Part shown: piece after piece, positions 12,199-35,281 of the stretch
Position numbering within the stretch: position 1 is the first letter of the stretch
Layout of the letters: each line of letters starts with the position of its first letter
NCBI GenBank assembly: GCA_947629365.1
Contig: CANRDM010000002.1
Coordinates: forward strand, 1 to 42,417
DNA from: an uncultured Bacilli bacterium
GTDB lineage: Bacteria > Bacillota_I > Bacilli_A > RF39 > UBA660
DNA length: 42,417 nt
Direction of reading: 5' to 3'
Notes under the pieces: generated by a model
Database searches by the model: none
What the model saw: the letters and a program-made list of their open reading frames with translations, nothing else
What the model was told of the DNA's origin: nothing
Made by a program: the position numbers and the translations under genes

Positions 12199-13003
12199 GC
12201 CGGTTTTATATACGATTATTATTTTACTCGTTATCTTTATTCCTCTTACTATCTTAGGTTTTTATTATAAAGAAAAACCAATAAGTATTAAAGATGATAA
12301 TACTAAACATTTTCCTTATTATAATAATAGTTTATGGTTTTATCAAAATGATAAATTAATAAGTAAATATGCTTGTTTAAATAGTAGATGTAGTTATAAT
12401 ATTAAAAGTATTATTAATAATAAGTATGTTTTTATTAAAGATGGGGATATTTTATATTTATATGATATAAATAAAGGTAGTGTTTATAATAAATATTTAG
12501 ATTGCCTTAATGAAGATAATAAATATATATGTAAAAGTGATAAAAATTTATGGGGTGTATTAAATATTAATGATGAAGTAAAAGAGATTATTCCTTTTAT
12601 TTATGAAAGTATTAATTTAAATAAAAATAAGTATATTGTTAAAAAAGATAATAAATATTATTTAATAGATGAAAATAATAATATATCTATAGGTTTTACA
12701 AGTAAAATAGAAGATTATAATAATACTTATATTATAAGTAAAGAAGAGGGTAGATACTTTATATATGATTATAAAGGTAATGAGTACTTAAATAATTATA
12801 ATATCAATAACTATAGTCTTAGTGATAATTATATTGGGATAGTTTTAAATAATAATTTAAATATTTATAATAATATAAATAATCTACCTTTAAAAGTAAT
12901 TACTTTAAATAATTATAATACTAAAATAAGATTTGAAGAAAAGAATTATAAATTAAATATTTATCTTGATGATTTATTACATAGTAGTATTGAATTATCT
13001 TAA
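12188..13003 (+). CDS. Membrane-anchored WG-repeat-like protein, smaller paralogue of the preceding gene
   Basis: N-terminal TM (VLYTIIILLVIFIPLTILGFYY). NLWGVLNINDEVKEIIPFIYESI matches the WG-repeat pattern. An 11-nt overlap with the upstream gene suggests translational coupling. Confidence 0.5.
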   Translation: MKNKPVLYTIIILLVIFIPLTILGFYYKEKPISIKDDNTKHFPYYNNSLWFYQNDKLISKYACLNSRCSYNIKSIINNKYVFIKDGDILYLYDINKGSVYNKYLDCLNEDNKYICKSDKNLWGVLNINDEVKEIIPFIYESINLNKNKYIVKKDNKYYLIDENNNISIGFTSKIEDYNNTYIISKEEGRYFIYDYKGNEYLNNYNINNYSLSDNYIGIVLNNNLNIYNNINNLPLKVITLNNYNTKIRFEEKNYKLNIYLDDLLHSSIELS

Positions 13004-13039
13004 ATATTTTGTTAAAATATGATTGTTATATGAAGAAAT

Positions 13040-13215
13040 TTGAGGTATATATTGGTACTTTTTAGAGAGTTAGTGGTTGGTGGAAACTAATAAGTTAAGA
13101 TATATTGGTTGCAAATGGAGTATAATATGCAGAAATGCTATATCATTTAATAAGTTAAATTAAAGGTGGTACCGTGCTTATGCACCCTTTTGGTATCATC
13201 TTTTTATTTGAAAAG
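13040..13215 (+). promoter_or_regulatory. T-box riboswitch leader of valS
   Basis: AGAGAG and GGTTGGTGGAAAC stem-I elements. The conserved T-box sequence AAAGGTGGTACCGTG sits at 13162-13176. A downstream helix and a T-run (13201-13210) follow. AAGTTAAG contains a plausible GUU (Val) specifier followed by A. Confidence 0.8.
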
Positions 13216-13224
13216 AGGGATAAG

Positions 13225-15744
13225 ATGTTAGATAAAAAATATGATCAAAATGAAGTAGAGAAAGATAGATATAACTATTGGCTAAATCATCATTATTTTG
13301 AATGTGGTGATACTTCTAAAAAGCCTTATTCAATAGTTATACCTCCCCCTAATGTGACGGGTAAACTACATTTAGGCCACGCTTGGGATACTACTTTACA
13401 AGATATTATTATTCGTTTTAAAAGAATGCAAGGTTATGATTGTTTGTGGCTTCCTGGGACAGATCACGCTGCGATTGCAACGGAAGCTAAAGTTGTAGCT
13501 AGATTAAAAGAACAAGGTATAAATAAATATGCTTTAGGAAGAGAAAAGTTTTTAGAAGAATGTTTTAAATGGACGGATGAACATAAAAGTATTATTCATT
13601 CTCAATGGGCTAAATTAGGATTATCAGTTGATTTAACAAAAGAAAGATTTACTTTAGATGAAGGATTAAGTAATGTTGTTAAATATGTTTTTGTTGATTT
13701 ATATAATAAAGGTTTAATTTACAGAGGAGAGAGGATTATTAACTGGGATCCGGTTGCCAAAACTGCTTTATCAAATGAAGAAGTTATCTATAAAGATATT
13801 GAAGGAGCATTCTATCACCTTAAATATTATCTTGAAGATAGTGATGAGTTTTTAGATGTAGCCACGACTAGACCAGAGACTTTATTTGGGGATACAGCAG
13901 TAGCGGTTAATCCAAAAGATGAAAGATATAATAAGTTAATTGGCAAGAATGTTATTTTACCAATTGTTGGTAAAAAGATTCCTATTGTTGGTGATGAACA
14001 CGCTGATCCATCATTTGGAACTGGTGTTGTTAAAATTACGCCGGCCCACGATCCAAATGACTTTGAAGTTGGTATTCGCCATAATTTAGAGCGAATTAAA
14101 GTTATTAATGAAGATGGTACAATGAATGACAAAGCTTTAAAATATCAAGGAATGGACCGTTTTGCAGCAAGAGATGAATTACTAAAAGATTTAGAAAAAG
14201 AAGATTTGCTTATAAAAATCGAACCAATGGTTCACTCTGTCGGTCACTCTGAAAGAACGAATGCTATTGTGGAACCATACTTGTCTAAGCAATGGTTTGT
14301 AAAGATGGATAGTCTTGCGAAGAAGGTTTTAGAAAATCAAAAAAATAAAGATACTAAAGTTAATTTTGTACCCCCAAGATTTGAAAAAATAATGAATAAT
14401 TGGATGAGTGATTGTCACGATTGGTGTATATCAAGACAACTTTGGTGGGGACATAGAATTCCTGCTTGGTATAAGGGCGATGAGATATATGTTTCTGTTA
14501 ATCCACCTGAGGGTGAAGGATGGATGCAAGATGAAGATGTATTAGATACTTGGTTTTCCAGTGCTTTATGGCCATTTTCTACGATGGGCTGGCCTAATGA
14601 TTTAGAACTTTATAATCGTTATTTTCCAACTGATACTTTAGTTACTGGTTATGATATTATCTTCTTCTGGGTTTGCCGAATGACTTTTCAAAGTTTGGAA
14701 TTTACTGAAAAGAGACCATTTAAACATTGTGTTATCCACGGTTTAATTAGAGATAAACAAGGAAGAAAAATGAGTAAAAGCCTAGGTAATGGTGTTGATC
14801 CAATGGATATGATTGATACTTATGGAGCCGATGCTTTAAGATATTATTTAACGACCTCAACTGCTCCAGGAATGGATTTAAGATTTGATGAAGAAAAGTT
14901 AAAATCAACTTGGAATTTTATTAATAAGTTATGGAATGCTTCTCGTTTTACTTTAATGAATATTGAAGATTTAAAAGATATGCAATTAGATGAATTAAAT
15001 AAACAAGATAAATGGATTTTAACTAAACTCAATAAAACAATTAAAGATGTTACCAAATATATGGAAAAATTTGAATTTAATAATGTTAATTCAATTATTT
15101 ATTCCTTTATTTGGAATGATTTTTGTGATAACTATATTGAAATGGCTAAGTTTAGTAGCGATAGTGTAGGTACTAAAAGCACTTTACTTTATACTTTAAG
15201 CGCTATTTTAAAAATGCTTCATCCATTTATGCCATATGTAACTGACGCAATATATAATGAACTACTAATTAAAGATAGTGAGTCTATTATGATTAGTAGT
15301 TATCCCGTTGTCGATAAAAAATTAATTTTTGCCGATGCTGAAAGTGAAGTTGATGAGATAATTGCTTTTATTAAAAATTATCGTAATGTTATAAAAGAAA
15401 ATAATATTTTAAATACTTATGAAGTTCAAGTTAATTTCACTGAAGAAATTATAATGAAAATGTTAAAACTTCAAGATCATATAATAGATAATCAAAAAGA
15501 TATAACAAAATTTAAAGTAAGTAGTAAAAATTATGAAGCCATTATCTATTATGAAAAAGAGTTAACTAAAGATGATGTCTTACAAAAAGAAAAAAGGATT
15601 GCTGAATTAAAAGCATCAATTAGTAAAAGAGAAGCACTACTTAATAATGAAAACTTTGTAAGTAAAGCACCAGAAGATTTAGTTAATAAAGAAAAAGAAA
15701 AATTAGCTAGTGAAAAAGAAGAACTTAAAAAAATTACTGAATAA
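13225..15744 (+). CDS. valS: Valine--tRNA ligase
   Basis: HIGH-type motif [17 protein letters not shown] motif [10 protein letters not shown], and a C-terminal coiled coil. ATG 13225 follows SD AAGAGGGA. The track start 13174 (GTG) lies inside the T-box. Confidence 0.95.
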
Positions 15745-22192: not shown

Positions 22193-24314
22193 CGAAATAA
22201 ATTTTGAAACAATCTATGATAAATTAGACTTTGATGAAAAAACTCTTAAAAAAATAAAAAAGGCCTACCTTTATGCTGCAAATGAATATGCAGGCAAGAA
22301 AAGATTATCGGGGGCTGATTACATTACCCATCCTTTAAATGTAACCAATATTTTAACGGATTTAAATGTTGATGATACCACGATTATTGCCTCTCTTTTA
22401 CACGATGTTTTAGATAAAGGTACTTCGGCAACAAAAGAGGATTTAAAAGAAAAATTTGGCGAAGATGTTGCCAATATTGTTTTAAATGTCTCAAAAATTA
22501 ATAAATTAGAATTACAAGATGAAACGGAAAACTCCAAAATCTATTTAAGAAAAGTTTTAGTTGGTTTAGCAGAGGACCCACGCGTAATTTTTATTAAATT
22601 AGCAGATCGTTTACATAATCTTCGGACAAGTTACGCCGTAAAAGAAGAAAGTAGAAAGAAAACTGCGAAAGAAACAATGGACATTTTAGTGCCAATTGCC
22701 CATCGTCTTGGTATTAATTCTATTAAAAGTGAAATGGAAAACTTATGTTTACAAATTTTAAAACCCGATGTATATAATGATATTTTAGAACGCCTTAATA
22801 ATACAACTAGTGAACTTAATGATAATCTTTTAAAAATGAAAGAAGATTTATCGCATTTATTAATTGATAATGATATTACTTTTGAAATAAAAGGGAGAGT
22901 AAAAAGCGTTTATAGTATTTATCATAAATTACAATCTGGTAAGAATTGGGATAGTATTTATGATATTCTTGCTTTAAGAATATTTGTTAAAACTGAAGCT
23001 TTATGTTATACCGTTATTGGGTTAATTCATTCTAAATATCGTCCTGTTCCGAAAAGATTTAAAGATTATATAGCTAATCCCAAAGAAAATATGTATCAAA
23101 GCTTACATACTACAGTTTTTGGTGATGATGGTAACTTTTATGAAATCCAAGTAAGGACATATGAAATGGATGAAATTGCTGAAAAAGGAATTGCTTCTCA
23201 CTGGTCATATAAAGAAAAAGGGGTGAAGAAGATTCAAACTATTATGGAACAAAAATTAGAAATGTTTCGTAATATTATTGAATCAGCTAGTAATGAAAAT
23301 GATACTAATTTTGAAAATGCAATGACTTATAATCTTTTAGGTGAGCTTATTTATGTTTATACCCCTAAAGGTGATGTTATTGAGCTTCCTAAAGATGCAA
23401 CTCCGATTGACTTTGCTTATCGCATCCATAGTAGAGTTGGTGATACAACAGTCGGTGCCATTGTTAATGATAATATTGTTCCTCTTTCTTATAATTTGCA
23501 AAATAATGATGTTGTTAAAATTATTACTAATAAAGAAGCTTTACCTAGTAATGATTGGTTAAGTTTTGTTAAAACTGAACAAGCTAGATCAAAAATAAAA
23601 GCTTTCTTTAGTAAAAAAGATCGTTTAGAATTAATTGAAAAAGGTAAGAGTATTTTAGAAAAAGAAATTAGAAGAAGAAAACTCGGTTATAATGATATTA
23701 TTAATGATCAAAATTTAAATAAAATATTAAAAGATTTAAAATTAAATAATTTAGAAGATTTATATTTAAGTTTAGGTTCTCTAAGATATACAGCTGGTTA
23801 TATTATTAATTTAACGACGGAAGATAAACATAATATTGATGATGTTTTAATTGAAAAAATAAAACCAAGAATAGATAAAAATAAAAATAATAATGATATC
23901 ATTGTTGATGGTAATACCAATATTATGTATAATTTGGCTAAATGTTGTCGTCCAGTTAAGGGAGATGATATTATTGGGTTTATTACAAAGGGAGAAGGAA
24001 TATCTGTTCATAAAAAAAATTGTCCAAATATTAAAGATGCTAATTTAAGACTGATTGATATTTCTTGGAATAAAGATGCTGATAACACTTACTATACTAA
24101 TGTTGTGTTATTAGTTAGTCAAAATAAGAATTATTTAGCTGATTTAATTGCCCTTGCCACTAAAGAAAAAATTACAATTGCGGAATTTAAAAATAAAGAA
24201 GCTGAAAATGGTACAGTTTGTGAGTTATTAGTAAAAGTTAATAATAAAGATGAACTTGACCGTTTTAAAAGTAAAGTTAATAAACTTAAAAATATTAAAG
24301 TAAGGGAGTCATAA
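22173..24314 (+). CDS. relA: Bifunctional (p)ppGpp synthetase/hydrolase (long RSH)
   Basis: HD domain (HPLNV, LLHDVLD, ADRLHNLRT), synthetase (RVKSVYSIYHKL, YQSLHTTV), TGS (VYTPKGDVIELPKDATPIDFAYRIHSRVG), and an ACT-like C-terminus. Confidence 0.95.
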   Translation: MRKLKDNEINFETIYDKLDFDEKTLKKIKKAYLYAANEYAGKKRLSGADYITHPLNVTNILTDLNVDDTTIIASLLHDVLDKGTSATKEDLKEKFGEDVANIVLNVSKINKLELQDETENSKIYLRKVLVGLAEDPRVIFIKLADRLHNLRTSYAVKEESRKKTAKETMDILVPIAHRLGINSIKSEMENLCLQILKPDVYNDILERLNNTTSELNDNLLKMKEDLSHLLIDNDITFEIKGRVKSVYSIYHKLQSGKNWDSIYDILALRIFVKTEALCYTVIGLIHSKYRPVPKRFKDYIANPKENMYQSLHTTVFGDDGNFYEIQVRTYEMDEIAEKGIASHWSYKEKGVKKIQTIMEQKLEMFRNIIESASNENDTNFENAMTYNLLGELIYVYTPKGDVIELPKDATPIDFAYRIHSRVGDTTVGAIVNDNIVPLSYNLQNNDVVKIITNKEALPSNDWLSFVKTEQARSKIKAFFSKKDRLELIEKGKSILEKEIRRRKLGYNDIINDQNLNKILKDLKLNNLEDLYLSLGSLRYTAGYIINLTTEDKHNIDDVLIEKIKPRIDKNKNNNDIIVDGNTNIMYNLAKCCRPVKGDDIIGFITKGEGISVHKKNCPNIKDANLRLIDISWNKDADNTYYTNVVLLVSQNKNYLADLIALATKEKITIAEFKNKEAENGTVCELLVKVNNKDELDRFKSKVNKLKNIKVRES

Positions 24315-24757
24315 TGAAAGTAGTTATTCAAAGAAGTAAACATAGTAGTGTTTCGATAAATAATAAAGTATATAATGAAATTACTAATGGTTTAGTGATA
24401 TTTAGTTGTTTTACTGAGGATGATACCATTGATGATATTAATTATATTGTCAAAAAGATTACTAATTTAAGAATATTTGATGATGAAAATGGGGTAATGA
24501 ATAAAAGTATTTTAGATTATGGAGGAAGTATTTTATCTATTAGTCAATTTACTTTATATGCTGACACTAAAAAAGGTAATCGCCCTAGTTATATTAAAGC
24601 TTTAAATGGGGAGGAAGCAACTAAACTATATGACACTTTTAATCGGGAATTAAATAAGATTGTACCTACAGTTACTGGCATTTTTGGGGCCGATATGCTT
24701 GTTAATATTGAAAATGATGGCCCCATAACAATTATAATTGACAGCAAAAATAAATAA
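24314..24757 (+). CDS. dtd: D-aminoacyl-tRNA deacylase
   Basis: MKVVIQR..., SQFTLYADTKKGNRPSY, and NIENDGPITIIIDS. Start is coupled to the rel stop (TAATG). Confidence 0.93.
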   Translation: MKVVIQRSKHSSVSINNKVYNEITNGLVIFSCFTEDDTIDDINYIVKKITNLRIFDDENGVMNKSILDYGGSILSISQFTLYADTKKGNRPSYIKALNGEEATKLYDTFNRELNKIVPTVTGIFGADMLVNIENDGPITIIIDSKNK

Positions 24758-24942
24758 TGTTACTAGACTTAAGTATGCTTAGAATTCAAAAACTAAATTA
24801 AATCATAACTATGGTATTACATCACGTTCAATTAAAGAAGCTAAAATGCTATTTGAATATTTATGTAATTTTTATCAAGATGAATATTTAAAATCTTTAG
24901 AAATGGTTACTCCTAAACATATTTTAGAAAGAAAAAATTAAA

Positions 24943-24971
24943 TTGACAATTAGAATATAACACTTTATAAT
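24943..24971 (+). promoter_or_regulatory. Perfect consensus sigma-A promoter in front of the paralogue array
   Basis: TTGACA (24943-24948), a 17-nt spacer, and TATAAT (24966-24971). SD AAAGGAG and ATG 25001 follow. Confidence 0.75.
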
Positions 24972-25000
24972 AAATGAATATATAAAAGGAGAAGCAAAAT

Positions 25001-25645
25001 ATGAATAGTAAAAACGTAGATAATAGCCAATTAGATTTGTATGATATTTTCCAAGAAAATTTCGCAATTAAAAAAAGAGCTAATGAACAAATTAAAAAAA
25101 AGAATCAATTAGAAGATAAAATTTATAAAGAAAGTATGCTTTTCCAAATACCAAGGCGAGACTTTGCCGAAGTTGAAAATATTATTGCTCTAAAAAAGAA
25201 TTTAGAATTTTACTTTTATGAGTTATTGCCGCTTTTTATTCAAGAAGCAATAATAAGAGGCGAAACCCAATTAGAATCTATAGATTATAACCGTTTAGGA
25301 TTATCTATTAAAAATGACTTATATTATATACTTCATAAGAGCAAATTTTTTGTATCCCAATATGATGGGCATCATTATTATTTTCCTTCTGATTCAGATG
25401 ATTGTAAATTTAATTTATATCTTAAAAATTTCATTGAACAATATAATTTAGGAGAAATGAATGAAAAATTTTTATCAGATAATGTATATACAGTTGAGTT
25501 GCAAGCATCTTTTAAAGATTTAGTTTATGCTTGTTATGTTGGTGAAGAGTGGGTTAAGTATTTAGAAGATGCGTGTATAGATTTATTAAGTGATTACTTT
25601 AATGAAGAACAATTAAAAAGTTATAAAAAAGGCAGAAGGCTATAG
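25001..25645 (+). CDS. Family A paralogue 1 (unknown function, acidic, no signal peptide)
   Basis: Shares LDLYDIFQENF, KKNLEFYFYELLPLFI and DLVYACYVGEEWVKYLEDACIDLLSDYFNEEQL with the other A members. Confidence 0.8.
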   Translation: MNSKNVDNSQLDLYDIFQENFAIKKRANEQIKKKNQLEDKIYKESMLFQIPRRDFAEVENIIALKKNLEFYFYELLPLFIQEAIIRGETQLESIDYNRLGLSIKNDLYYILHKSKFFVSQYDGHHYYFPSDSDDCKFNLYLKNFIEQYNLGEMNEKFLSDNVYTVELQASFKDLVYACYVGEEWVKYLEDACIDLLSDYFNEEQLKSYKKGRRL

Positions 25646-25661
25646 AATGGTGAGTTAGATA

Positions 25662-26198
25662 ATGGAAAATAGTGAAAAATTAAATAATATAACAAATGAG
25701 CAATTAAAAATAAAACTTTCAGAAACTAGTGATGATTATTATCATACATATTGTGCTTATAGAGAAGTTGAAAGATTAGTCGGTTTTAAAAGAAATCTAG
25801 AGTTTTTCTTTTATGAATTACTTCCACTTTATATTAAAGAAAAAGATGATAAAGATCAAAAGATTTCTATTAAATTAAATTTACTTTTTGATGATAAAAC
25901 GTCCAAATATTTTTATGCAATAGATGATGATAAATTTTATTTTTTACCTTCCCAATCTCATAATTGGTTTGATTTTTTTCTTATTACATTCATTAATGAA
26001 TATAATTTAAGAAAAACAGATAAAGAGGATTTTTTTTCTAAGGATTACAATATTAATATTGAAGCATCCTTAAAAGATTTAATGTATGCTTGCTATATTG
26101 GCGAAGAGTGGGTTAAGTATTTAGAAGATGGTTGCTTAGAATTATTAAGTGATTATTACAGTGAAGAACAACTAAAGAAATATCAAAGAAGAAGATAA
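25662..26198 (+). CDS. Family A paralogue 2 (shorter; divergent N-terminus)
   Basis: KRNLEFFFYELLPLYI and DLMYACYIGEEWVKYLEDGCLELLSDYYSEEQL. Lacks the LNLYDIF N-terminal motif. Confidence 0.8.
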   Translation: MENSEKLNNITNEQLKIKLSETSDDYYHTYCAYREVERLVGFKRNLEFFFYELLPLYIKEKDDKDQKISIKLNLLFDDKTSKYFYAIDDDKFYFLPSQSHNWFDFFLITFINEYNLRKTDKEDFFSKDYNINIEASLKDLMYACYIGEEWVKYLEDGCLELLSDYYSEEQLKKYQRRR

Positions 26199-26221
26199 TA
26201 AAATTGAAGGAGGCTTTGGTA

Positions 26222-26827
26222 ATGTATATACTTGATAAAAATAATGGTGGGATTGATCTTTATACAATTACTGCTAAAAAAGAAGAATTAAAAGAATATA
26301 GGAAAAATATTATAAATGCCCAAAAAGATAAACTATTTTATTATATATTATCTAAAAATAGTAGAGTTCTTAAAGATTTTACTTCTTTAGAAGAAATTGA
26401 TTTAGATAATATTCCTTATAATAAAAAATTGGTTTCTTTTCTTAATGATCTTATTAATTATGATGACTCATCTTATCATAGAATGATTCATCAATATATT
26501 GATGGTGATAATATAACGGATGATTATCTTAATGGTTTAAAAGATAATAATATACCAATTAAAGTAATTTCTGCAAACGAAGAATTTTACTATTTAGTAC
26601 CTAAGATATGGCAAATTGATTACAATAACTTTATGTTAAGACAAGTAATGAGATTATCAAAAGAATTATATTTATTACATTTGCTTCTTTTAGGAAAATA
26701 TGAAAAATTAGCAAGTGAACCAACGCTTGAACAATTAGAGTTATTTAATATTGAATATATTAAAACAATCACTATAGAAGAATTAGCATATTTAATTAAT
26801 TCTAAATATGCCAGCAAGTGCTTATGA
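26222..26827 (+). CDS. Family B paralogue 1 (C-terminal tail displaced into another frame)
   Basis: MYILDKNNGGIDLYTITAKKEELKEYRKNI and LLHLLLLGKYEKL...EQLELFNIEY. SD GAAGGAGG precedes ATG 26222. The homologous tail ...YDSIIKKAELDGQILQKRRK is encoded in a shifted frame at 26808-26885. Confidence 0.7.
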   Translation: MYILDKNNGGIDLYTITAKKEELKEYRKNIINAQKDKLFYYILSKNSRVLKDFTSLEEIDLDNIPYNKKLVSFLNDLINYDDSSYHRMIHQYIDGDNITDDYLNGLKDNNIPIKVISANEEFYYLVPKIWQIDYNNFMLRQVMRLSKELYLLHLLLLGKYEKLASEPTLEQLELFNIEYIKTITIEELAYLINSKYASKCL

Positions 26828-26897
26828 TAGCATTATTAAAAAAGCTGAATTAGATGGTCAAATTTTACAAAAAAGAAGAAAATAAAGGAGAAGTTAT

Positions 26898-27635
26898 ATG
26901 TACATATATGATAAAAAGGCTGATAGTATAGTTTTGTATACTATTGAAGCTAAAAAGGAAGCGTTAAGAGAATATAAGCGAAAAATACTTGAGGCAAATG
27001 ATAAAGATTTATTATATCATTTGATAACTAATAGTGCTGAGGCCATAGAAAAATTTATAAATTCTAGTGAATTATCTATAAATGATCTTGATTTTTTTAC
27101 TCCAGCTAGTTCCTCTAATGATTCAATTAGTAGTTCATTTAATCCCATTTCTGGAACAAGTAATATTGCTACTTTAGAAAATAAAGTTGCCCATTATTTT
27201 AATAATAGTGCTTCATTTAAAGCTTATATTTATAATGATTATATTTATACATTAAAAAAATATATTGAAGGTAAATTTGATGATTATTCACTTAAAAAGG
27301 TCACTAATAAAAAAGGACATTATTTTTATCTTTTAAGAACAGAAAATTTTGATTTAATTGATTGTTATCAAGATGACTCATATTATATAATTAATGATAT
27401 CATTAAATTACCAAGAGATTTACAAATATTACAATTATTATTACAAGGTAGATATAGTGAGATTGGCAGTTTACCGCCTGAACAATTAAAACTTTTCAAT
27501 ATTAAATATTGTAAAAGCATTAAAATAAGTGATATTGAAGATTTATATGCAATTGGCTTAGTTAGTGGTAAATTTGAAGATACAATGAGAAAAGTATCAA
27601 GTTCATCACGTATATTGCAAAAATATAAAAAATAA
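26898..27635 (+). CDS. Family B paralogue 2
   Basis: MYIYDKKADSIVLYTIEAKKEALREYKRKILEAND..., ...YFYLLRTE..., LPRDLQILQLLLQGRYSEI, and SSSSRILQKYKK. Confidence 0.8.
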   Translation: MYIYDKKADSIVLYTIEAKKEALREYKRKILEANDKDLLYHLITNSAEAIEKFINSSELSINDLDFFTPASSSNDSISSSFNPISGTSNIATLENKVAHYFNNSASFKAYIYNDYIYTLKKYIEGKFDDYSLKKVTNKKGHYFYLLRTENFDLIDCYQDDSYYIINDIIKLPRDLQILQLLLQGRYSEIGSLPPEQLKLFNIKYCKSIKISDIEDLYAIGLVSGKFEDTMRKVSSSSRILQKYKK

Positions 27636-27654
27636 AGAAAGAGGTATAGAAAAG

Positions 27655-28305
27655 ATGGAAAATGCAAAAAAGATGGATAAAGGAGCTTTAAATTTATATG
27701 ATATTTATAAAGAAAGCTATGAAATAAGTAGTAGAGTAAAAGCTGTATATGATAAGCAAAAACAGTTAAGTGATGAACTATTTGAGTATTGTAATCACAA
27801 TTTTGTTAATAGAAAAAATTTTGAAGAAGTAGAAAGCGTTCTTGGTCTTAAAGAAAATTTATCTTTTTTCTTTTATAAATTTATCCCATTTGTAATTCAA
27901 AATTATTTATTAAAAAATCAAAATAGTATTAAATCTTTAGATGCAAATGAATATAAAATATCTACTAATTTTAGATTAAGTTATAAGACAAGTATTTATA
28001 AACATATTAGTTATGAAGATGAAAATATAGAATTTCCTTTACCTTATGATTCTGATTATTATCATTTTGAAGAAATACTTATTAAATTTATTGAAGAACT
28101 TAATTTAGGTACGATTAAAATGTTAAATTCTCAATTTGGCTTAGATTATTCTATTTTAATTGAAACTTCATTACAAGATTTAATATATGCTTGTTATCTA
28201 GGAGAAGAATTGGTTAAAGTTTTAGAAGATGAATGTATTGATTTATTAAGTGATTACTTTAGTGAAGAACAATTAGCAAATTTTAAGAAAACTCTACATA
28301 GGTAA
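27655..28305 (+). CDS. Family A paralogue 3
   Basis: LNLYDIYKESYEI, LKENLSFFFYKFIPFVI, and DLIYACYLGEELVKVLEDECIDLLSDYFSEEQLANFKKTLHR. Confidence 0.8.
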   Translation: MENAKKMDKGALNLYDIYKESYEISSRVKAVYDKQKQLSDELFEYCNHNFVNRKNFEEVESVLGLKENLSFFFYKFIPFVIQNYLLKNQNSIKSLDANEYKISTNFRLSYKTSIYKHISYEDENIEFPLPYDSDYYHFEEILIKFIEELNLGTIKMLNSQFGLDYSILIETSLQDLIYACYLGEELVKVLEDECIDLLSDYFSEEQLANFKKTLHR

Positions 28306-28326
28306 TATTTAAATAAGGAGATTATA

Positions 28327-29058
28327 ATGTACATATATGATAAAAAAGATGATAGTATAGTTTTGTATACTATTGAAGCTAAAAAAGAAGAATTAAAAAG
28401 ATATAAGCGAAAAATAATTGAAGCAAATGATGCTGATTTATTATATTATTTAATAACTACTGTAGTAACAACTAAAGACCGATTTGTAAATTCCGAAGAA
28501 CTAGCTATAAGTGATATTGTATATGGACCTGAGTGGACTATTCCTGGGAGAATTCAATCAAATTTAAGAAAATGTGGTGGTACAAAAAACATAGCATATT
28601 TAAAAGAATTATGTTTAAGGTTTCATGCAATTGGTTGGCCGCCTGATCGAGAGGATGAATGCGAAGAACAAATAAATTTAATTGAACAATACATTAATGG
28701 TGATTTTGATAATATTCCATTAATAAGAATTATTGAAGAAAACAATCATGATTTTTATCTTTTAAGAACAGAAGCAGCGAAAACAATTATGTATGGTAGC
28801 TTTTGGGTTATCGATAACATTATTAAATTACCGAGAAGTTTACAAATACTACAATTATTATTACAAGGTAAATATGAAAAAATAAATGAGGCAGAAATTA
28901 CTGATCAACTAAAGCTATTTAATATTAATTATTATGATAGCGTCAAGCTAAATAACATTAGAGATATGCATATAACAGAATCAGCTAATGACTCTTATGA
29001 ATCTATTTTAGAAAAAGTTTCTTCTGGGTCACGTATATTACAAAAATATAAAAAATAA
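28327..29058 (+). CDS. Family B paralogue 3
   Basis: MYIYDKKDDSIVLYTIEAKKEELKRYKRKIIEAND..., FYLLRTE, LPRSLQILQLLLQGKYEKI, and SSGSRILQKYKK. Confidence 0.8.
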   Translation: MYIYDKKDDSIVLYTIEAKKEELKRYKRKIIEANDADLLYYLITTVVTTKDRFVNSEELAISDIVYGPEWTIPGRIQSNLRKCGGTKNIAYLKELCLRFHAIGWPPDREDECEEQINLIEQYINGDFDNIPLIRIIEENNHDFYLLRTEAAKTIMYGSFWVIDNIIKLPRSLQILQLLLQGKYEKINEAEITDQLKLFNINYYDSVKLNNIRDMHITESANDSYESILEKVSSGSRILQKYKK

Positions 29059-29077
29059 AGAAAGAGGTATAGAAAAG

Positions 29078-29728
29078 ATGGAAAATGAGAAAATGAAGAA
29101 TAATGATGATTTAAATTTATATGATATTTTTAAAGAAAATTATGAAATAGGACAAAGAGTAGAAGCTGCACATAATAAGAAAAAACAATTAAGAGATGAG
29201 TTATTTGATTATGGCTCTATTAATATAGCTAATAGAAATCAATTTAATGAAGTAGAAAGAATAATTGACCTTAAAAAGAATTTAATATTTTTCTTTTCCA
29301 AGTTTATGCCTTTTTTGATTCATACCTATTTATTAGAAAATCATAAAGATATTAAATCATTAGATGTTAGTAAATGTAAAATATCAGCTGATTTTACCTT
29401 GAGTTATGACGAAAAATCTTACAAGTATATTTATTATGGTAAATCTTTTTACATTTTACCTTCTGATTCTGATTATAATAATTTTAATGAATTACTTGTA
29501 AACTTTATTAATGAATATCATTTAGGAACAATTGAGAAGAGAAAATCTGATGATACTGTAGAATTAATTTATTTTATAACTATAAATACTTCATTAAAAG
29601 ATTTAATATATGCTTGCTATGTAGGTGAAGAATGGATTAAACATATAGAAGATGAATGCCTTACTATATTAAGTGATTATTATAGTGAAGAACAATTAGC
29701 AAGTTTTAAGAAAACTCTCCATAGGTAA
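29078..29728 (+). CDS. Family A paralogue 4
   Basis: MENEKMKNNDDLNLYDIFKENYEIG... and DLIYACYVGEEWIKHIEDECLTILSDYYSEEQLASFKKTLHR. Confidence 0.8.
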   Translation: MENEKMKNNDDLNLYDIFKENYEIGQRVEAAHNKKKQLRDELFDYGSINIANRNQFNEVERIIDLKKNLIFFFSKFMPFLIHTYLLENHKDIKSLDVSKCKISADFTLSYDEKSYKYIYYGKSFYILPSDSDYNNFNELLVNFINEYHLGTIEKRKSDDTVELIYFITINTSLKDLIYACYVGEEWIKHIEDECLTILSDYYSEEQLASFKKTLHR

Positions 29729-29759
29729 TAAAAATATAAAATAACGAAAGGAAAAAATT

Positions 29760-30392
29760 ATGGATAAAGAAAAAATAATGAATGGTGATGCTTTAAGTTT
29801 ATATGAAATCTTTAAAGAAAGTAAGGAAGCACAAAATATGGAAGATGAAATAAACGATGCTATAGGACGATTGCAGGATAAAATGATTTATACAAACTTA
29901 TCATCATATCAAAAAGATTTTGCAAAAATAGAAAGTCTTATTTACCTTAGGAAAAATCTAGAGTTTTATTTCTATCAATTTTTACCATTTTTTATTAAAA
30001 AAACTATTTTAAATAGTAAAAGAAAGTTAAATATTACTCATTCTGTGGCTTTCAAACATATTTTTTACTGTTATCCCGGTGGATGCAAGGGCTTTGAAGC
30101 AGAAGACAAGCTTATCTATTGTTTACCAGCCCAAATTAATGGTAAAGCATTTGTTTTTCATTTAAAAAATTTTATTACACAATATGAATTAGGTAAAATG
30201 GATAGAAGGATTCCTGATAAGGAATATGAATATAACGTTAGAATACATACTACATTAAGAGATTTAATATATGCTTGTTATATAGGACAAGAATGGGTTA
30301 AATCTTTAGGAGAAGAATGTATTGACATATTAAGTGATTATTATAGTGAAGAACAATTAGATAGTTTTAAGAAAACTCTTCATAGACAATAA
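29760..30392 (+). CDS. Family A paralogue 5
   Basis: LSLYEIFKESKE, RKNLEFYFYQFLPFFI, and DLIYACYIGQEWVKSLGEECIDILSDYYSEEQLDSFKKTLHRQ. Confidence 0.8.
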   Translation: MDKEKIMNGDALSLYEIFKESKEAQNMEDEINDAIGRLQDKMIYTNLSSYQKDFAKIESLIYLRKNLEFYFYQFLPFFIKKTILNSKRKLNITHSVAFKHIFYCYPGGCKGFEAEDKLIYCLPAQINGKAFVFHLKNFITQYELGKMDRRIPDKEYEYNVRIHTTLRDLIYACYIGQEWVKSLGEECIDILSDYYSEEQLDSFKKTLHRQ

Positions 30393-30424
30393 AAATATAA
30401 AATAAAAAAAGAGGTATAGAAAAG

Positions 30425-31075
30425 ATGGAAAATGAGAAAATGAAGAATAATGAGGATTTAAATTTATATGATGTTTTTAAAGAAAATTATGAAATAGGAA
30501 GAAGAGAAAACGTTAATGAAAGAACAGAGCTTCTGAACACCGAACTATTCTTTTACGGTCACGATTACTTATTTTATCAAAGTGATTTTGTAGAAGTAGA
30601 AAGTATTCTTGGCCTTAGAAAAAATTTAGAATTTTTCTTTTCCAAGTTCTTACCCTTCTTGATTCATGAAGTTTTAAGAAAAAAACAAACCAAGATTAAT
30701 TCTCTAGATGCCAGTGAATTGGCAATATTTTCTAAATTTGAATTGCATTTTTTGACAAAAGAAAATAAAACCATTTTTTATTGTGATAACCATTCGGAAT
30801 ATTTTTTACCTTCTAATCACGATTATAGTAATTTTGATGAATTACTTACAACATTTATTATTGAATATCATTTAGGAACAGTGGTTGAGAATTGTAATCA
30901 TCCTCAAGGAAAAATATATTATATTGCCATAGATACAACATTGAAAGATTTAATATATGCTTGTTATATAGGACAAGAATGGGTTAAATCTATAGGAGAT
31001 GATTGTATTGATTTACTTAGCGATTATTATAGTGAAGAACAATTAGAAAATTACAAAAAAACTCTTCATAGATAA
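30425..31075 (+). CDS. Family A paralogue 6
   Basis: MENEKMKNNEDLNLYDVFKENYEIG... and DLIYACYIGQEWVKSIGDDCIDLLSDYYSEEQLENYKKTLHR. Confidence 0.8.
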   Translation: MENEKMKNNEDLNLYDVFKENYEIGRRENVNERTELLNTELFFYGHDYLFYQSDFVEVESILGLRKNLEFFFSKFLPFLIHEVLRKKQTKINSLDASELAIFSKFELHFLTKENKTIFYCDNHSEYFLPSNHDYSNFDELLTTFIIEYHLGTVVENCNHPQGKIYYIAIDTTLKDLIYACYIGQEWVKSIGDDCIDLLSDYYSEEQLENYKKTLHR

Positions 31076-31087
31076 TAAAATTCTTAG

Positions 31088-31116
31088 TTGACGATAATTA
31101 AAAAAAGTAATAAAAT
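31088..31116 (+). promoter_or_regulatory. Sigma-A type promoter of the hisS T-box leader
   Basis: TTGACG (31088-31093), a 17-nt spacer, and TAAAAT (31111-31116). Confidence 0.6.
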
Positions 31117-31119
31117 TAG

Positions 31120-31325
31120 AATATAAATATTTTCTATAAAAAGACAAGTAATTTATTAAATGAATTTTTAAAGAGAAGACGGTTGGTGAGAAAGTCAAAT
31201 AATTTAATAAATGAAGACACTTTTAGATAAATAGAAACGCACTTAGTGTGATAAATTTTAAGACCTAAAGTAAGGTGGTACCGCGGGAAGACTCGCCCTT
31301 ATGAATAGGTCTTTTTATTTTTTAG
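31120..31325 (+). promoter_or_regulatory. T-box riboswitch leader of the hisS-aspS-asnS-gatCAB operon
   Basis: AAGAGAAGACGGTTGGTGAGAAAG stem-I elements. The candidate specifier region is GAAGACAC (GACAC at 31216-31220). The T-box sequence is TAAGGTGGTACCGCGG (31271-31286). The terminator pairs AGACCTA (31261-31267) with TAGGTCT (31306-31312), followed by a T-run. Confidence 0.85.
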
Positions 31326-31338
31326 AAAGGATGATTAA

Positions 31339-32601
31339 ATGATAACTAAACCAAAAGGAACTATTGATATTACGGGAAGTGATTCTCTATTATGGGAATA
31401 TGTTAATTCAGTTGTAAGTACAATGATGGCTACTTATAATTATGAATATATTAGAACCCCAATTTTTGAAGCAAGTGAATTATATCACCGCTCAGTAGGA
31501 GAATCATCAGATATCGTAAAAAAAGAAACTTACGATTTTAAAGATAAAGGAGATCGTAATTTAACTTTAAGGCCAGAAGGAACAGCAGGTGTAGTAAGAA
31601 GTTACTTAGAAAATAAAGAGTATGCATCACCTGATGTAAAAAAATACTATTATAATGGCACAATGTATCGTTATGAAAGACCCCAAGCGGGAAGACTTAG
31701 GGAATTTACCCAATTTGGAGTGGAAGTTCTTGGGAGTGACGATCCAATTATTGATGCGGAAGTAATTAGTTTACAATATAAAATTTTAGAAGCCCTACAT
31801 ATTAGTAATTTACAAGTAAATATTAATACTTTAGGTGATGAAGAATCAAGGATTAAATATCGTGATGCTTTAGTCAAATATTTAGAACCACATCTAGATC
31901 TATTATGTGATGATTGTAAAGAAAGATTTAAAACTAATCCTTTAAGAATACTAGATTGTAAAGTTGATGCGGAAAGCCCGATTTTAAAAAAGGCTCCTAA
32001 AACAATCGATTATCTAACAAAGGATGCTAAAGAAAGATTTACAACAGTATTAAAATATTTAGATTTATTAGAAGTTGATTACGAAGTAAATCCTAAAATA
32101 GTAAGAGGTCTTGATTATTATGATCATACTGTTTTTGAAATAGTGTCCTTAGATAGTGATGAGACAAGACAAAGTGTTTTAGGTGGTGGCGGTAGATACA
32201 ATAAATTAATTAAAGAATTAGGGGGTAAAGATAATTATGGAATTGGTTTTGCCTGTGGAGTTGACCGGATAATTGCCTTACTTAAAGAAATTGATTTATA
32301 TCAAAATGTCAAAAAAGAAATTGATTGCTATGTAATGTATGTGTCTGAAGAAGAAAAATTAAATGCTCTTCCGATTGTCCAAAACTTAAGACTTAATGGA
32401 GTCGTTGTTGAGACAAATAATTTAAATAAAGGCTTAAAAGGACAATTTAATGAAGCTGATCGTCTTGATGCTAAATTTTTAATTATTTTAAATAATGAAG
32501 ATTTAAAATTAGGTTTAGTTAATGTTAAAGATAATCATACTAAAGAAGAGGTTAAAATAGATATTTCGGAAATAGTTGATTACATTATTAGTAATTTGTA
32601 G
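31339..32601 (+). CDS. hisS: Histidine--tRNA ligase
   Basis: Class II motifs LRPEGTAGVVRSY, YRYERPQAGRLREFTQFGVE, and GGGGRYNKL...GFACGVDR. Confidence 0.95.
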   Translation: MITKPKGTIDITGSDSLLWEYVNSVVSTMMATYNYEYIRTPIFEASELYHRSVGESSDIVKKETYDFKDKGDRNLTLRPEGTAGVVRSYLENKEYASPDVKKYYYNGTMYRYERPQAGRLREFTQFGVEVLGSDDPIIDAEVISLQYKILEALHISNLQVNINTLGDEESRIKYRDALVKYLEPHLDLLCDDCKERFKTNPLRILDCKVDAESPILKKAPKTIDYLTKDAKERFTTVLKYLDLLEVDYEVNPKIVRGLDYYDHTVFEIVSLDSDETRQSVLGGGGRYNKLIKELGGKDNYGIGFACGVDRIIALLKEIDLYQNVKKEIDCYVMYVSEEEKLNALPIVQNLRLNGVVVETNNLNKGLKGQFNEADRLDAKFLIILNNEDLKLGLVNVKDNHTKEEVKIDISEIVDYIISNL

Positions 32602-32608
32602 GAGGATT

Positions 32609-33898
32609 ATGAAAAGAGAATTAATAAATGAATTAAGTGAAGAAAAAATAGCTCGCATTAGTGGTTGGGCTGAGACAATAAGAGATACTAAATATATGAT
32701 TTTTATCATTTTAAAAGATGCTAGTGGCAAAATACAAGTATCTATTGATAAAGAAAATAATAAAGATATTGTAAATGCTCTTGAAGGTATTCTTCAAAAT
32801 AGTATCTTAGAATTTACAGGTGTAATGAAATTAAGTGAATACGTTAAAAATGGTGGTAAAGAGTTTATTCCGGAAAGTGTTAAAATCTTAAGTAAGGCCG
32901 AAAAACTACCTCTTGATGAGACGGCAAATATTGATACACGCCTAGATTATAGATGGATAGATTTAAGAAGTGCTAAAAACAATTTAATGCTTAAAGTTCA
33001 ATCAGCATTTGTTGATGGTATGCGATCATTTTTAATTAAGGAAAATTTTACGGAGATTCATACGCCTAAATTAATTGCGACAGCCTCTGAATCAGGTAGC
33101 GATGTTTTTGAAGTAAAATATTTTGATAGAAAAGCTTATCTTGCCCAAAGCCCTCAATTTTATAAACAAATGGCTATTGCCAGTGGCTTAGAAAGAATAT
33201 TTGAAATTGCCCCGGCCTTTAGAGCGGAAAATTCTAATACAAATCGTCATACCACTGAGTTTACTTCTTTTGACTTAGAATTTGCTTATATTGATTCATA
33301 TGAAGATGTAATGGATATGGAAGAAGAGCTTTTAATCGCCGGTTTAACTAACGTTAAAAATTTATATGCAAAAGAAATTAAAGAATTATTTGGTGAAGAT
33401 GTAATTATTCCTAAAAGACCATTTCCAAGAATTAAATTACAAGATTTATATCAAGAATTAAATAAAAGATATAATTATGAAATACCAGCTTATGATATTG
33501 GGGATATGAATGCTGAAGCAGAAAAATTAACGAGTCAATATGCTAAAGAAGTTTATGATAGTGAGTTTATCTTTGTAACAGATTTTGCGAAGACTAAAAG
33601 AGCTTTTTATCATATGCGTAAAGATGATATTCCCCAAGGCTTTGACCTTATATGGAAAGGTACGGAAATAACTACGGGAGCCCAAAGAGAGCATCGTTAT
33701 GAAGAGCTTAAAAAACAAGCCGAAGAAAAAGGATTGGCTAAAGATGTGGAATTTTACTTACAATTCTTTAAGTATGGTTGCCCTCCACACGGTGGATTTG
33801 CTATTGGCGTTGACCGTCTTACAATGCTTTTACTTGGTATTTCATCTTTAAAAGAAGAAATGTTTATTTTTAGGGGTCCATCAAGACTTACCCCTTAA
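32609..33898 (+). CDS. aspS: Aspartate--tRNA ligase, short archaeal/eukaryotic type (~430 aa, no GAD insertion)
   Basis: FRAENSNTNRHTTEFTSFDLE, and PPHGGFAIGVDRLTMLL. SD AGGAGG precedes ATG 32609; the track start 32576 overlaps hisS and is unlikely. Confidence 0.85.
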   Translation: MKRELINELSEEKIARISGWAETIRDTKYMIFIILKDASGKIQVSIDKENNKDIVNALEGILQNSILEFTGVMKLSEYVKNGGKEFIPESVKILSKAEKLPLDETANIDTRLDYRWIDLRSAKNNLMLKVQSAFVDGMRSFLIKENFTEIHTPKLIATASESGSDVFEVKYFDRKAYLAQSPQFYKQMAIASGLERIFEIAPAFRAENSNTNRHTTEFTSFDLEFAYIDSYEDVMDMEEELLIAGLTNVKNLYAKEIKELFGEDVIIPKRPFPRIKLQDLYQELNKRYNYEIPAYDIGDMNAEAEKLTSQYAKEVYDSEFIFVTDFAKTKRAFYHMRKDDIPQGFDLIWKGTEITTGAQREHRYEELKKQAEEKGLAKDVEFYLQFFKYGCPPHGGFAIGVDRLTMLLLGISSLKEEMFIFRGPSRLTP

Positions 33899-33916
33899 TA
33901 GAAAGGATTATTTAAT

Positions 33917-35281
33917 ATGGATTTAAGAGATTTATTTAGTGATACAAAAAAATATTTAAATAATGAAGTAACTATCTGTGGTTGGATAAGATTACATCGT
34001 GATCAAAAAACTTTTGGCTTTATTGATTTTTCTGATGGTACTTGTCAAACTCATTTGCAAGTTGTATACGATGAAAAATTAACTAATTTTAGCGATGTTC
34101 AAAAGTTTTTAGTGGGTTCAGCTATTTCAGTAACAGGAGTAGTTGTGGAATCAAAAGGTAATCAAGAAATTGAATTACAAGCAAGTAATATCACTCTTTT
34201 AGGTGATTGTCCCGAAGATTATCCGATTCAACCTAAAAGACATACAAGAGAATTTTTAAGAGAACAAGCATATCTAAGGCCAAGAACTAATCTTTTCCAA
34301 GCTGTTTTTAGAGTAAGAAGTATTGCTGCCTATGCTATTCATAAATATTTCCAAGAAAGAGGTTATGTTTATTTTCACGCCCCTTTAATTACTGCAAGTG
34401 ATTGTGAAGGAGCCGGTGAGATGTTTCAAGTAACGACTTTACCAATAGATAAAATTAAGGGTGAAGTAGATTATAGTAAAGATTTCTTTGGTAAACTAAC
34501 AGGGCTAACCGTAAGTGGTCAATTAGAAGCGGAAACATTTGCAATGGCTTATAAAAAAACTTATACTTTTGGGCCAACTTTTAGAGCAGAAAATTCTAAT
34601 ACCAAAACCCATGCTGCTGAATTTTGGATGATTGAACCAGAAATTGCCTTTTGTGATTTAGAAGGGGATATGGACATAATGGAAGATATGCTTAAATATA
34701 TTGTTAAATATGTTTTAGATAACGCTAAAGAAGAAATTAATTTCTTTGATGCTTTTGTCGAAAAAGGCTTAAAAGAAAAACTTGAAAAACTTATTAATAG
34801 TAAGTTTGTAAGAATTGATCATAAAGATGTAATTAAACTATTAAAAGAAGCTCCAGTTAAATGGGAATTTGAACCAGTTTATGGTGGTGATATTGCTAAA
34901 GAACACGAAAAATATATTACTGAATACTTTAATGGACCAGTCTTTATCAAAAATTGGCCAAAAGATATTAAAGCTTTCTATATGAAATTAAATCCTGATA
35001 ATGAAACCGTGGCGGCGGTTGATTTAGAAGTACCGGGAGCTGGTGAATTAATGGGTGGTAGTCAAAGAGAAGAAAATTACGATAAACTTATTAAAAGAAT
35101 GCAAGAATTAAAGATGAGTGATAATGGTCTAGAATGGTATTTAAATCTTCGTCGTTATGGTGGTTGTGTTCATTCTGGCTTTGGAATGGGATTTGAAAGA
35201 CTTTTAATTTATTTAACTGGTGTTGATAATATTAGAGATGTTATTCCTTATCCAAGAACACCAAAATCTTGTGATTATTAA
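33917..35281 (+). CDS. asnS: Asparagine--tRNA ligase
   Basis: FRAENSNTKTHAAEFWMIEPE, GGSQREE, and HSGFGMGFERLL. Confidence 0.9.
   Translation: MDLRDLFSDTKKYLNNEVTICGWIRLHRDQKTFGFIDFSDGTCQTHLQVVYDEKLTNFSDVQKFLVGSAISVTGVVVESKGNQEIELQASNITLLGDCPEDYPIQPKRHTREFLREQAYLRPRTNLFQAVFRVRSIAAYAIHKYFQERGYVYFHAPLITASDCEGAGEMFQVTTLPIDKIKGEVDYSKDFFGKLTGLTVSGQLEAETFAMAYKKTYTFGPTFRAENSNTKTHAAEFWMIEPEIAFCDLEGDMDIMEDMLKYIVKYVLDNAKEEINFFDAFVEKGLKEKLEKLINSKFVRIDHKDVIKLLKEAPVKWEFEPVYGGDIAKEHEKYITEYFNGPVFIKNWPKDIKAFYMKLNPDNETVAAVDLEVPGAGELMGGSQREENYDKLIKRMQELKMSDNGLEWYLNLRRYGGCVHSGFGMGFERLLIYLTGVDNIRDVIPYPRTPKSCDY

Follow-up and report, generated by a model that had tools for sequence, protein, structure and literature searches.

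The region described here lies in a 42,417-nucleotide (nt) stretch of DNA from an uncultured Bacilli bacterium (contig CANRDM010000002.1, hereafter the window), where an array of tandem genes occupies the interval between dtd (24314-24757, upstream) and hisS (31339-32601, downstream) in the core chromosome. The array comprises nine open reading frames (ORFs), all on the plus strand within 25001-31075. They belong to two protein families, A and B, and follow one another in the order A1 A2 B1 (frameshifted) B2 A3 B3 A4 A5 A6. Genes B2-A3 and B3-A4 are old tandem copies that have diverged except in three blocks, and it is probable that the array is altered by ordinary homologous recombination between such repeats. 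Of a third gene, C, the window keeps only a remnant. The features of the locus are listed below, where L001, L002, L010 and L012 denote related genomes, L002 being a sister strain whose flanking DNA is ~96% identical to that of the window.

24758 to 24940, plus strand: remnant of gene C (367 amino acids (aa) in relatives), with a hidden Markov model match to C positions 323-367 and a blastn match to L002
24943 to 24971, plus strand: promoter of sigma-70-type consensus (TTGACA, 17 nt, TATAAT), 30 nt 5' of A1
25001 to 25645, plus strand: A1, family A, 214 aa; no counterpart in L002
25662 to 26198, plus strand: A2, short member of family A, 178 aa; orthologues 87-89% identical in L001 and L002
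26222 to 26885, plus strand: B1, frameshifted member of family B; the ORF ends at 26827 and the rest lies in another frame up to ~26885
26898 to 27635, plus strand: B2, family B, 245 aa, first gene of unit 1; orthologue 94% identical in L002
27655 to 28305, plus strand: A3, family A, 216 aa, second gene of unit 1; missing from L002
28327 to 29058, plus strand: B3, family B, 243 aa, first gene of unit 2; missing from L002, with orthologues 90% identical in L010 and 83% in L012
29078 to 29728, plus strand: A4, family A, 216 aa, second gene of unit 2; orthologue 97% identical in L002, directly after B2
29760 to 30392, plus strand: A5, family A, 210 aa, with the most divergent centre
30425 to 31075, plus strand: A6, final family A paralogue, 216 aa
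31127 to 31303, plus strand: T-box leader of hisS, bounding the array on its downstream side (Rfam RF00230, 63.3 bits, E 9.5e-14)

The genes are closely packed, with intergenic spacers of 16-32 nt except for the 70 nt found 3' of the frameshifted B1. Protein identity is 40-57% among the A paralogues and 31-48% among the B paralogues. The frameshift removes ~28 C-terminal residues from B1, although the lost end (..AELDGQILQKRRK*) is still readable in the other frame, and an intact orthologue of 221 aa is present in L002. Because the frameshift is identical in two further assemblies (L023 and L024), we regard it as real.

Two diverged units and their junction

The units at 26898-28326 and 28327-29759 align in register over their full length of ~1.43 kilobases (kb), with 983 of 1408 columns identical (69.8%) and 46 gap columns. 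At the protein level, identity is 48% between B2 and B3 and 57% between A3 and A4, and synonymous divergence (dS) between paralogues of the two units is ~0.5-0.7. Many repeat families are spaced 1423-1429 nt apart. An earlier reading of the letters alone, which we refer to as the original prediction, had described two head-to-tail copies of the same B-A unit. The in-register self-alignment bears out the arrangement and the homology, but not the degree of likeness that this wording implies. With units that are 70% identical in nucleotides and dS values of this size, the idea of a recent duplication can be set aside.

Identity varies strongly along the units. In sliding windows of 60 nt, the initial ~130 nt of B reach 83-95% and the junction between B and A reaches 95%, the last ~165 nt of A are at 78-87%, and the centres of the genes fall to 40-60%. 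Entropy profiles agree with this pattern of conserved scaffold segments around variable centres. The conserved segments have the following positions.

26898 to 27030, plus strand: B 5' homology block, copy 1, 133 nt, 89% identical to 28327-28459
27606 to 27664, plus strand: junction repeat, copy 1, made up of the last 10 codons of B2, a 19-nt spacer and the first 10 nt of A3
29029 to 29087, plus strand: second copy of the junction repeat, from the end of B3 across the spacer to the start of A4
28120 to 28334, plus strand: A 3' homology block, A3 copy, 215 nt, 73-75% identical to the copies at 29543, 30204 and 30890, with a core at 78-87%
30391 to 30506, plus strand: third instance of the start region shared by A genes, upstream of A6 and extending into it, 94% identical to 29044-29159, with an identical 27-nt core at 30408-30434

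At the junction, an exact 47-mer is present in two places only (27618-27664 and 29041-29087), where zero would be expected by chance, and the identity stretches to 59 nt with one mismatch, at 27617 (27606-27664 versus 29029-29087). Shuffling the match/mismatch string 20000 times never produced a run of 47 identical columns, and the mean longest run was 17.9. In the same test, seven identical runs of at least 20 columns were observed versus 0.29 expected. The spacer of the junction contains an AAAGAGG ribosome-binding site, and the A3 part consists of codons 1-3 plus one base. A 27-nt core, AAAGAGGTATAGAAAAGATGGAAAATG, occurs in three copies, at 27638, 29061 and 30408, the last of which is located 5' of A6. 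Thus, the extended identity that had been anticipated at the B-to-A junctions is present in the self-alignment as an exact repeat, with coordinates shifted by one base from those of the original prediction. The resemblance of the first part of B2 to that of B3 and the recurrence of the core between A5 and A6, both of which had been pointed out before, were also recovered.

Array variants in related genomes

The relatives of the window are metagenome-assembled genomes labelled 'uncultured Bacilli bacterium' from rabbit gut ('Lapin' bins). Five of these assemblies (L002, L003, L004, L006 and L008) share the arrangement C, then A2 B1 B2 A4 A5 A6. In L002, B2 (94% aa identity) is directly joined to A4 (97% aa identity), and the missing A3 and B3 amount to exactly one 1423-nt period. 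Alignment of the junctions reveals a switch of sequence type in L002, which is of the B2 type to column 126 and of the A4 type from column 138, and the crossover therefore lies within the shared TCACGTATATT...ATG stretch. A one-period difference of this kind is the expected product of recombination between two junction copies. The comparison between strains that the original prediction had proposed thus yields a one-period difference in L002 and four other assemblies, with the breakpoint inside the junction.

Seven distinct array arrangements were mapped, and truncated fragments and chimeric genes were also found in related genomes. Cassettes were labelled by best global match, single-linkage clustering having merged the families via the conserved 3' block. 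Arrangements other than those of the window and the five assemblies above are given here in gene order.

L005 and L007: L002-like array, likewise one period short, but lacking gene C
L010: C, a frameshifted A2, a 24-codon B 5' fragment, B3 (90%), an A6-like gene
L012: B1', B3 (83%), an IS110 insertion, B4, a frameshifted A3-like gene
L021: B4, an A3-like gene, A, A
L001: C, A, A2, B4, A, A, A, A
L011: C' and a single A gene ahead of hisS
L020: C', A, the C-terminal fragment of a B gene, and another A gene that runs off the contig

A3 is preceded by B2 in the window and by B4 elsewhere, and B3 is followed by A4 in the window and by an A6-like gene elsewhere. Because the partners of B and A differ in every related genome, the two do not form a conserved module, contrary to what had been supposed from the window by itself. 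Rather, the junction is the place where B and A partners change. The further proposal that such repeats would let the array expand, contract and shuffle is supported by the L002 form and by the other orders of B and A.

In the A1/A2 region, the window and L002 differ a second time at the level of whole cassettes, here with a breakpoint that is less clearly defined (window 25001-25700 versus L002 7322-7360). In L002, a promoter, leader and first codons of the A1 type are fused to the A2 body, and the promoter found upstream of A1 in the window stands 5' of A2. The region of gene C was also compared (window 24758-24940, L002 6159-7262 and L005 7056-7262). The remnant in the window keeps codons for about residues 22-30 and 329-367 only, and its start codon is gone. 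This deletion falls between two 8-nt direct repeats, GGTATTAC, and an identical deletion junction is present in L005 and L007. The window is also without the hairpin located 3' of dtd. Signs of decay are found in several genes of the locus, with B1 frameshifted and C reduced to a remnant in the window and with A2 and A3-like genes broken in other genomes.

In L012, another rabbit-gut Bacilli genome, an IS110-family transposase gene (7591-8853, minus strand) is inserted inside the A/B array. The position that follows hisS is a second variable spot beside the array, since ORFs are present there in L002 and L012 and none in the window. L002 encodes a 432-aa secreted-type protein with a CAP domain and an Ig-like domain (12859-14157), located after hisS and before the next synthetase gene. 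At the same position, L012 has an ORF of 579 aa (12180-13919) and the window (32601-32610) has nothing.

Probable recombination and selection at the junction

We estimate a probability of about 0.75 that this array consists of old tandem copies altered by ordinary homologous recombination between repeats. The conclusion follows from the sister strain, which is without exactly one copy and has its break inside the shared junction. The conserved blocks would encode parts of the protein scaffold together with an unstructured, strong translation start of A, and would be kept alike on that account. Occasional gene conversion between paralogues would homogenize them further. Since the blocks are direct repeats, with junction copies of 47-59 nt located 1423 nt apart, recombination between them is possible, and RecA-type homologous recombination would delete, duplicate or re-pair whole cassettes.

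With respect to the direction of change, we lean towards deletion of A3-B3 in the L002 lineage over a gain in that of the window. The A3 and B3 lineages are represented in other species and predate the split between the window and L002, which makes loss the simpler course, and a deletion between direct repeats would be a single intramolecular event. Conversely, the window form might be derived, if a B2-A4 ancestor acquired A3-B3 from a different strain or species by recombination via the conserved flanking blocks. The L002-type array is present in at least seven assemblies versus three for the window form, the nearest relatives of A3 and B3 reside in other species with other partners, and the uneven dS along the array suggests exchange between strains. 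Specifically, when the window is compared with L002, dS in A4-A6 (0.04-0.07) is roughly a third of that in A2-B2 (0.13-0.24) or hisS (0.21), a contrast that hints at inter-strain exchange with a limit close to the junction. Identity of the two sequences in sliding windows was too noisy to locate a sharp step in divergence at the junction. Nonetheless, no donor with the order A3-B3 was found, and we consider such a gain possible but less likely.

The strong conservation of the junction calls for separate consideration. The motif AAATAAAGAAAGAGGTATAGAAAAG-ATGGAAAATGAGAAAATGAAGAATAAT is located 5' of A3-, A4- and A6-type genes in several species, whether the preceding gene is a B or an A, and is kept by species that differ by ~17% in their relA/dtd DNA. 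The junction is the common upstream region plus the first codons of several A genes. Its AAAGAGG ribosome-binding site is strong and at normal spacing, no RNA structure was detected within the junction (z-scores -0.3 to +0.9), and the conserved N-terminus reads MENEKMKNN. Selection on the translation start and the N-terminal peptide probably helps to keep the junction identical, because the motif is retained across species and at A-to-A junctions despite the divergence of relA/dtd, and because of the strong ribosome-binding site. The same observations would be expected if the junction were identical only as a selected translation start, without any special role in rearrangement, and if the strain differences had arisen via other routes. 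We find this unlikely, given that the sole structural difference at this place between the window and L002 has both ends in the motif and spans one period, and that B and A partners switch at the motif in L010, L012 and L021. Moreover, selection and recombination are not mutually exclusive.

Gene conversion between paralogues probably adds to the likeness of the junction and the other blocks. A4 is nearest to A6 in the 5' block (91%) but nearest to A3 in the body (68-73%), and A5 is like other A genes in the 3' block only. Over the first 30 codons, the proportion of synonymous differences (pS) between B2 and B3 is 0.19, versus ~0.5 beyond. For A4 and A6, pS is 0.13 in the first 30 codons versus 0.89 in the following 30. 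Fisher tests gave p = 0.03 and 0.06. The ratio of nonsynonymous to synonymous divergence (dN/dS) between orthologues is 0.2-0.3 for array genes and 0.78 for A5, compared with 0.04-0.16 for neighbouring housekeeping genes. The array genes are therefore under purifying selection that is weaker than that acting on housekeeping genes, and they are functional yet fast-evolving.

Several points weigh against the proposal that recombination between the blocks reshapes the array. A repeat of 47-59 nt is short for efficient RecA recombination in some Firmicutes, according to estimates of minimal homology. The A3-B3 difference could reflect either a deletion or a gain. Because the junction is kept across species, selection alone could hold it identical, and the synonymous-site evidence for gene conversion is weak (p = 0.03-0.06). 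Finally, recombination within one population was not seen directly in the reads, which consisted of short Logan unitigs from four runs of one rabbit-gut sample and break at the repeat. One unitig of 47 nt corresponds to exactly 29041-29087 and is deeper than its flanks, as both copies of the 47-mer are collapsed, and the unique segments, A3-B3 included, are each covered at even depth. Apparent 'joints' between Logan unitigs were rejected as evidence of heterogeneity, their sides being only 20-21 nt long and one 'goes back' joint not being reproduced.

Programmed variation of the kind known from variable surface-protein loci, in which cassette switching or phase variation is driven by a site-specific recombinase or an invertible promoter, would also be compatible with a multi-cassette array that has a single promoter, conserved gene ends and variable centres. 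We consider it very improbable. Between dtd and hisS, the window contains no recombinase ORF, none adjoins the array either, and the IS110 gene of L012 is an insertion. There are no significant inverted repeats round the promoter, where only AT-rich chance matches were seen, and the proteins have no signal peptides or hydrophobic segments. In addition, every cassette is a complete gene with its own ribosome-binding site.

The assembled arrangement can be compared with L023 and L024, which are contigs of the same strain from other samples. Both are 100% identical to the window from A1 through B2-A3-B3 into A4, and both stop at window position 29658, within the conserved 3' block of A4. An assembly error, either a mis-join or a falsely duplicated stretch, might be suspected in a metagenome contig whose two sister contigs break at a repeat, but such an artefact is the least credible explanation of all, as the identical stretch of 47-59 nt is below read length, 30% of positions are unlike in the two units, the same bases are found throughout in three assemblies of different samples, and unitig depth is even on every unique segment. 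For metagenomics, the two contigs that stop at the same conserved block illustrate that assemblies tend to break in arrays of this type.

Protein families, known arrays and chromosomal setting

Families A and C are confined to a few rabbit-gut Bacilli genomes. Family A forms 22 clusters among 5.8 billion proteins, and only six clusters at 50% identity were recovered in an exhaustive HMMER search of 1.84 billion representatives. These clusters all belong to this lineage and, wherever their gene context could be seen, to this locus. Family C, whose members are cysteine-rich and 277-367 aa in length, forms three clusters. Family B forms 15, of which the distant ones are single-copy genes among the housekeeping genes of other bacteria, with neither A nor C nearby. 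Searches of A, B and C proteins against Pfam, NCBIfam, PADLOC and PHROGs gave nothing above noise, and profile-profile comparisons of A with B, C with A and C with B revealed no relation. With regard to a phage origin, no relatives turned up when viral contigs were scanned with profiles of A and B, and a scan of metagenome contigs for B found none either.

The A and B proteins are predicted to be soluble. Most are acidic, with an isoelectric point of 4.8-5.3, whereas B2 and A5 are near neutral. The maximum Kyte-Doolittle hydropathy over 19 residues is 0.6-1.3, and the grand average of hydropathy is -0.35 to -0.74. No features of surface export (signal peptide, lipobox, transmembrane or hydrophobic segment) were found in the array proteins. 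The structural model of A, at a predicted local distance difference test (pLDDT) score of 76, is of moderate confidence and consists of a helix of ~74 residues followed by an alpha/beta domain. The model of B is confident (pLDDT 89, predicted template modelling score 0.84). Profile searches against PDB sequences gave no match for B and chance-level matches only for A (E of at least 0.12). There were no PDB fold matches at E <= 0.001 for A or B, and the fold search with the B model produced no match, its best E value being 0.15 against both PDB and the viral BFVD. A NikR/ACT-like fold for A was considered and rejected, as the best Foldseek result (E 0.015, template modelling score 0.24-0.37) was judged to be a generic ferredoxin-like resemblance. 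Descent of A from the neighbouring relA, suggested by weak matches to ACT/ferredoxin-like folds, was rejected as well, with no relation seen between A and the RelA C-terminus by profile-profile comparison.

Protein C carries CxxCGGxCC (CxxCGGKCC), then C-x-x-L-x3-GC-x-L-x3-NRPG. This resembles the motif of the CxxCxxCC/YkgJ family, but Pfam PF03692 is not matched and the last cysteine of that motif is absent. A Pfam hmmscan with the C proteins of L001 and L002 gave no match at E <= 1. A short motif is shared between C and A, namely FFCDVLKENFEG at residues 316-325 of the L002 C protein and LYDVFKENYEI at residues 14-23 of A, with an hhalign E value of 0.039 that is not significant.

In the esaG/DUF600 arrays of Staphylococcus aureus and the tipC arrays of Streptococcus, which belong to type VII secretion systems (T7SS), recombination at conserved blocks that include the gene end and the intergenic region drives the loss and gain of genes (Garrett et al. 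2022, PMC9484751). Like those arrays, the present one is composed of non-identical tandem paralogues on one strand (six A and three B), with blocks of nucleotide similarity at gene ends, intergenic region included, and with variable centres. It also resembles them in having mosaic paralogues, whose nearest relative varies by segment (synonymous-site support for this is weak here), pseudogenized copies and an interspersed second gene family. Copy number and order differ between close strains in both cases, with breakpoints in conserved blocks, as is seen here for the window versus L002 and in the other orders of L001, L010, L012 and L021. In contrast, the proteins are unrelated in sequence and fold to EsaG, to TipC and to every other immunity family, the 42-kb window contains neither toxin nor T7SS genes, two unrelated families alternate, and the location is between dtd and hisS. 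The locus is best classed with recombining tandem paralogue arrays of the esaG/tipC type, built of new gene families. Its mechanism is ordinary and known, and only the families are new. The mechanism therefore adds little to a textbook process that is well documented for the esaG and tipC immunity arrays, and the locus serves as a natural example in which a conserved junction of 47-59 nt between diverged tandem genes marks where cassettes are lost, gained and re-paired.

Two other kinds of locus bear comparison. Poly-immunity and orphan-immunity loci of polymorphic toxin systems encode small cytoplasmic, often acidic, fast-evolving proteins that are kept after a larger neighbouring gene has been lost. 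Similarly, C is deleted here and the A genes remain. Unlike at poly-immunity loci, no domain for toxicity or trafficking is recognizable in C, which is conserved and not polymorphic, and A, B and C are all foreign to Pfam and PADLOC. In the variable surface lipoprotein arrays of Mollicutes, tandem paralogues share conserved upstream regions and 5' ends but vary in their bodies, and copy number shifts by recombination. The array described here shares with them a low-GC (guanine plus cytosine) host of the Bacilli class, conserved 5' ends and variable bodies, but has no signal peptide, lipobox, hydrophobic segment, site-specific recombinase or invertible element.

We tentatively suggest that the array is a diversifying gene set of the conflict or immunity type. 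This guess is prompted by fast-evolving tandem paralogues with variable centres on a conserved scaffold, by the differences between strains, by the pseudogenes and the IS insertion, and by the retention of A after the loss of C. In such a system, A would ancestrally have been paired with the cysteine-rich C, and after the loss of C the A genes of the window might have been kept like orphan immunity genes. It is also conceivable, though more doubtful still, that C, A and B together make up an undescribed conflict system, of the toxin-immunity or anti-phage type, in which C is the effector, A its cognate protector, multiplied into an array of poly-immunity type, and B a recruited accessory, and in which shuffling at the junction builds repertoires of specificity. 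These functional suggestions face several difficulties. They have no support from homology in Pfam, NCBIfam, PADLOC or PHROG, and A and B show no homology to the known immunity families (DUF600/EsaG, TipC, Imm, SUKH) in library or structure searches. The 42-kb window contains no toxin or secretion genes, and C, the sole candidate partner, has no recognizable domain and is well conserved rather than polymorphic. Were the locus nonetheless of the conflict or immunity type, it would contribute three new protein families to that field, and it would indicate that such loci can sit silently among housekeeping genes without a recognizable toxin or secretion system.

The window has a GC content of ~25% and uses the standard genetic code, as judged from its long ORFs. 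Core genes carried by it are rpsB, tsf, gmk, valS, holA, mnmA, relA, dtd, hisS, two Asp/Asn-type synthetase genes, gatCAB and mreC. The array promoter is the sole 12/12 match within 24300-31400, and a scan of this region revealed no convincing terminator within the array. Given the perfect promoter 5' of A1, the lack of an internal terminator and the separate T-box of hisS, the nine genes look like a single operon that is probably transcribed from the promoter upstream of A1. The T-box was missed by the default Rfam scan because its score of 63 bits lies below the gathering score of 93. At the gathering threshold there were zero Rfam matches in the window, and the T-box emerges only when an E-value threshold is used.

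Elsewhere in the window, the ribosomal protein S2 gene (4006-5064) encodes a protein that is extended at its C-terminus, and the extension has a match to the Rho_N domain (E 1.5e-9, residues 318-350). The segment at 10321-13003 has a very low GC content (18-20%) and contains two ORFs, of 625 and 271 aa, without a Pfam match. Downstream of the array, at 32576-35281, lie two tandem class II Asp/Asn-type tRNA synthetase genes, followed by gatCAB.

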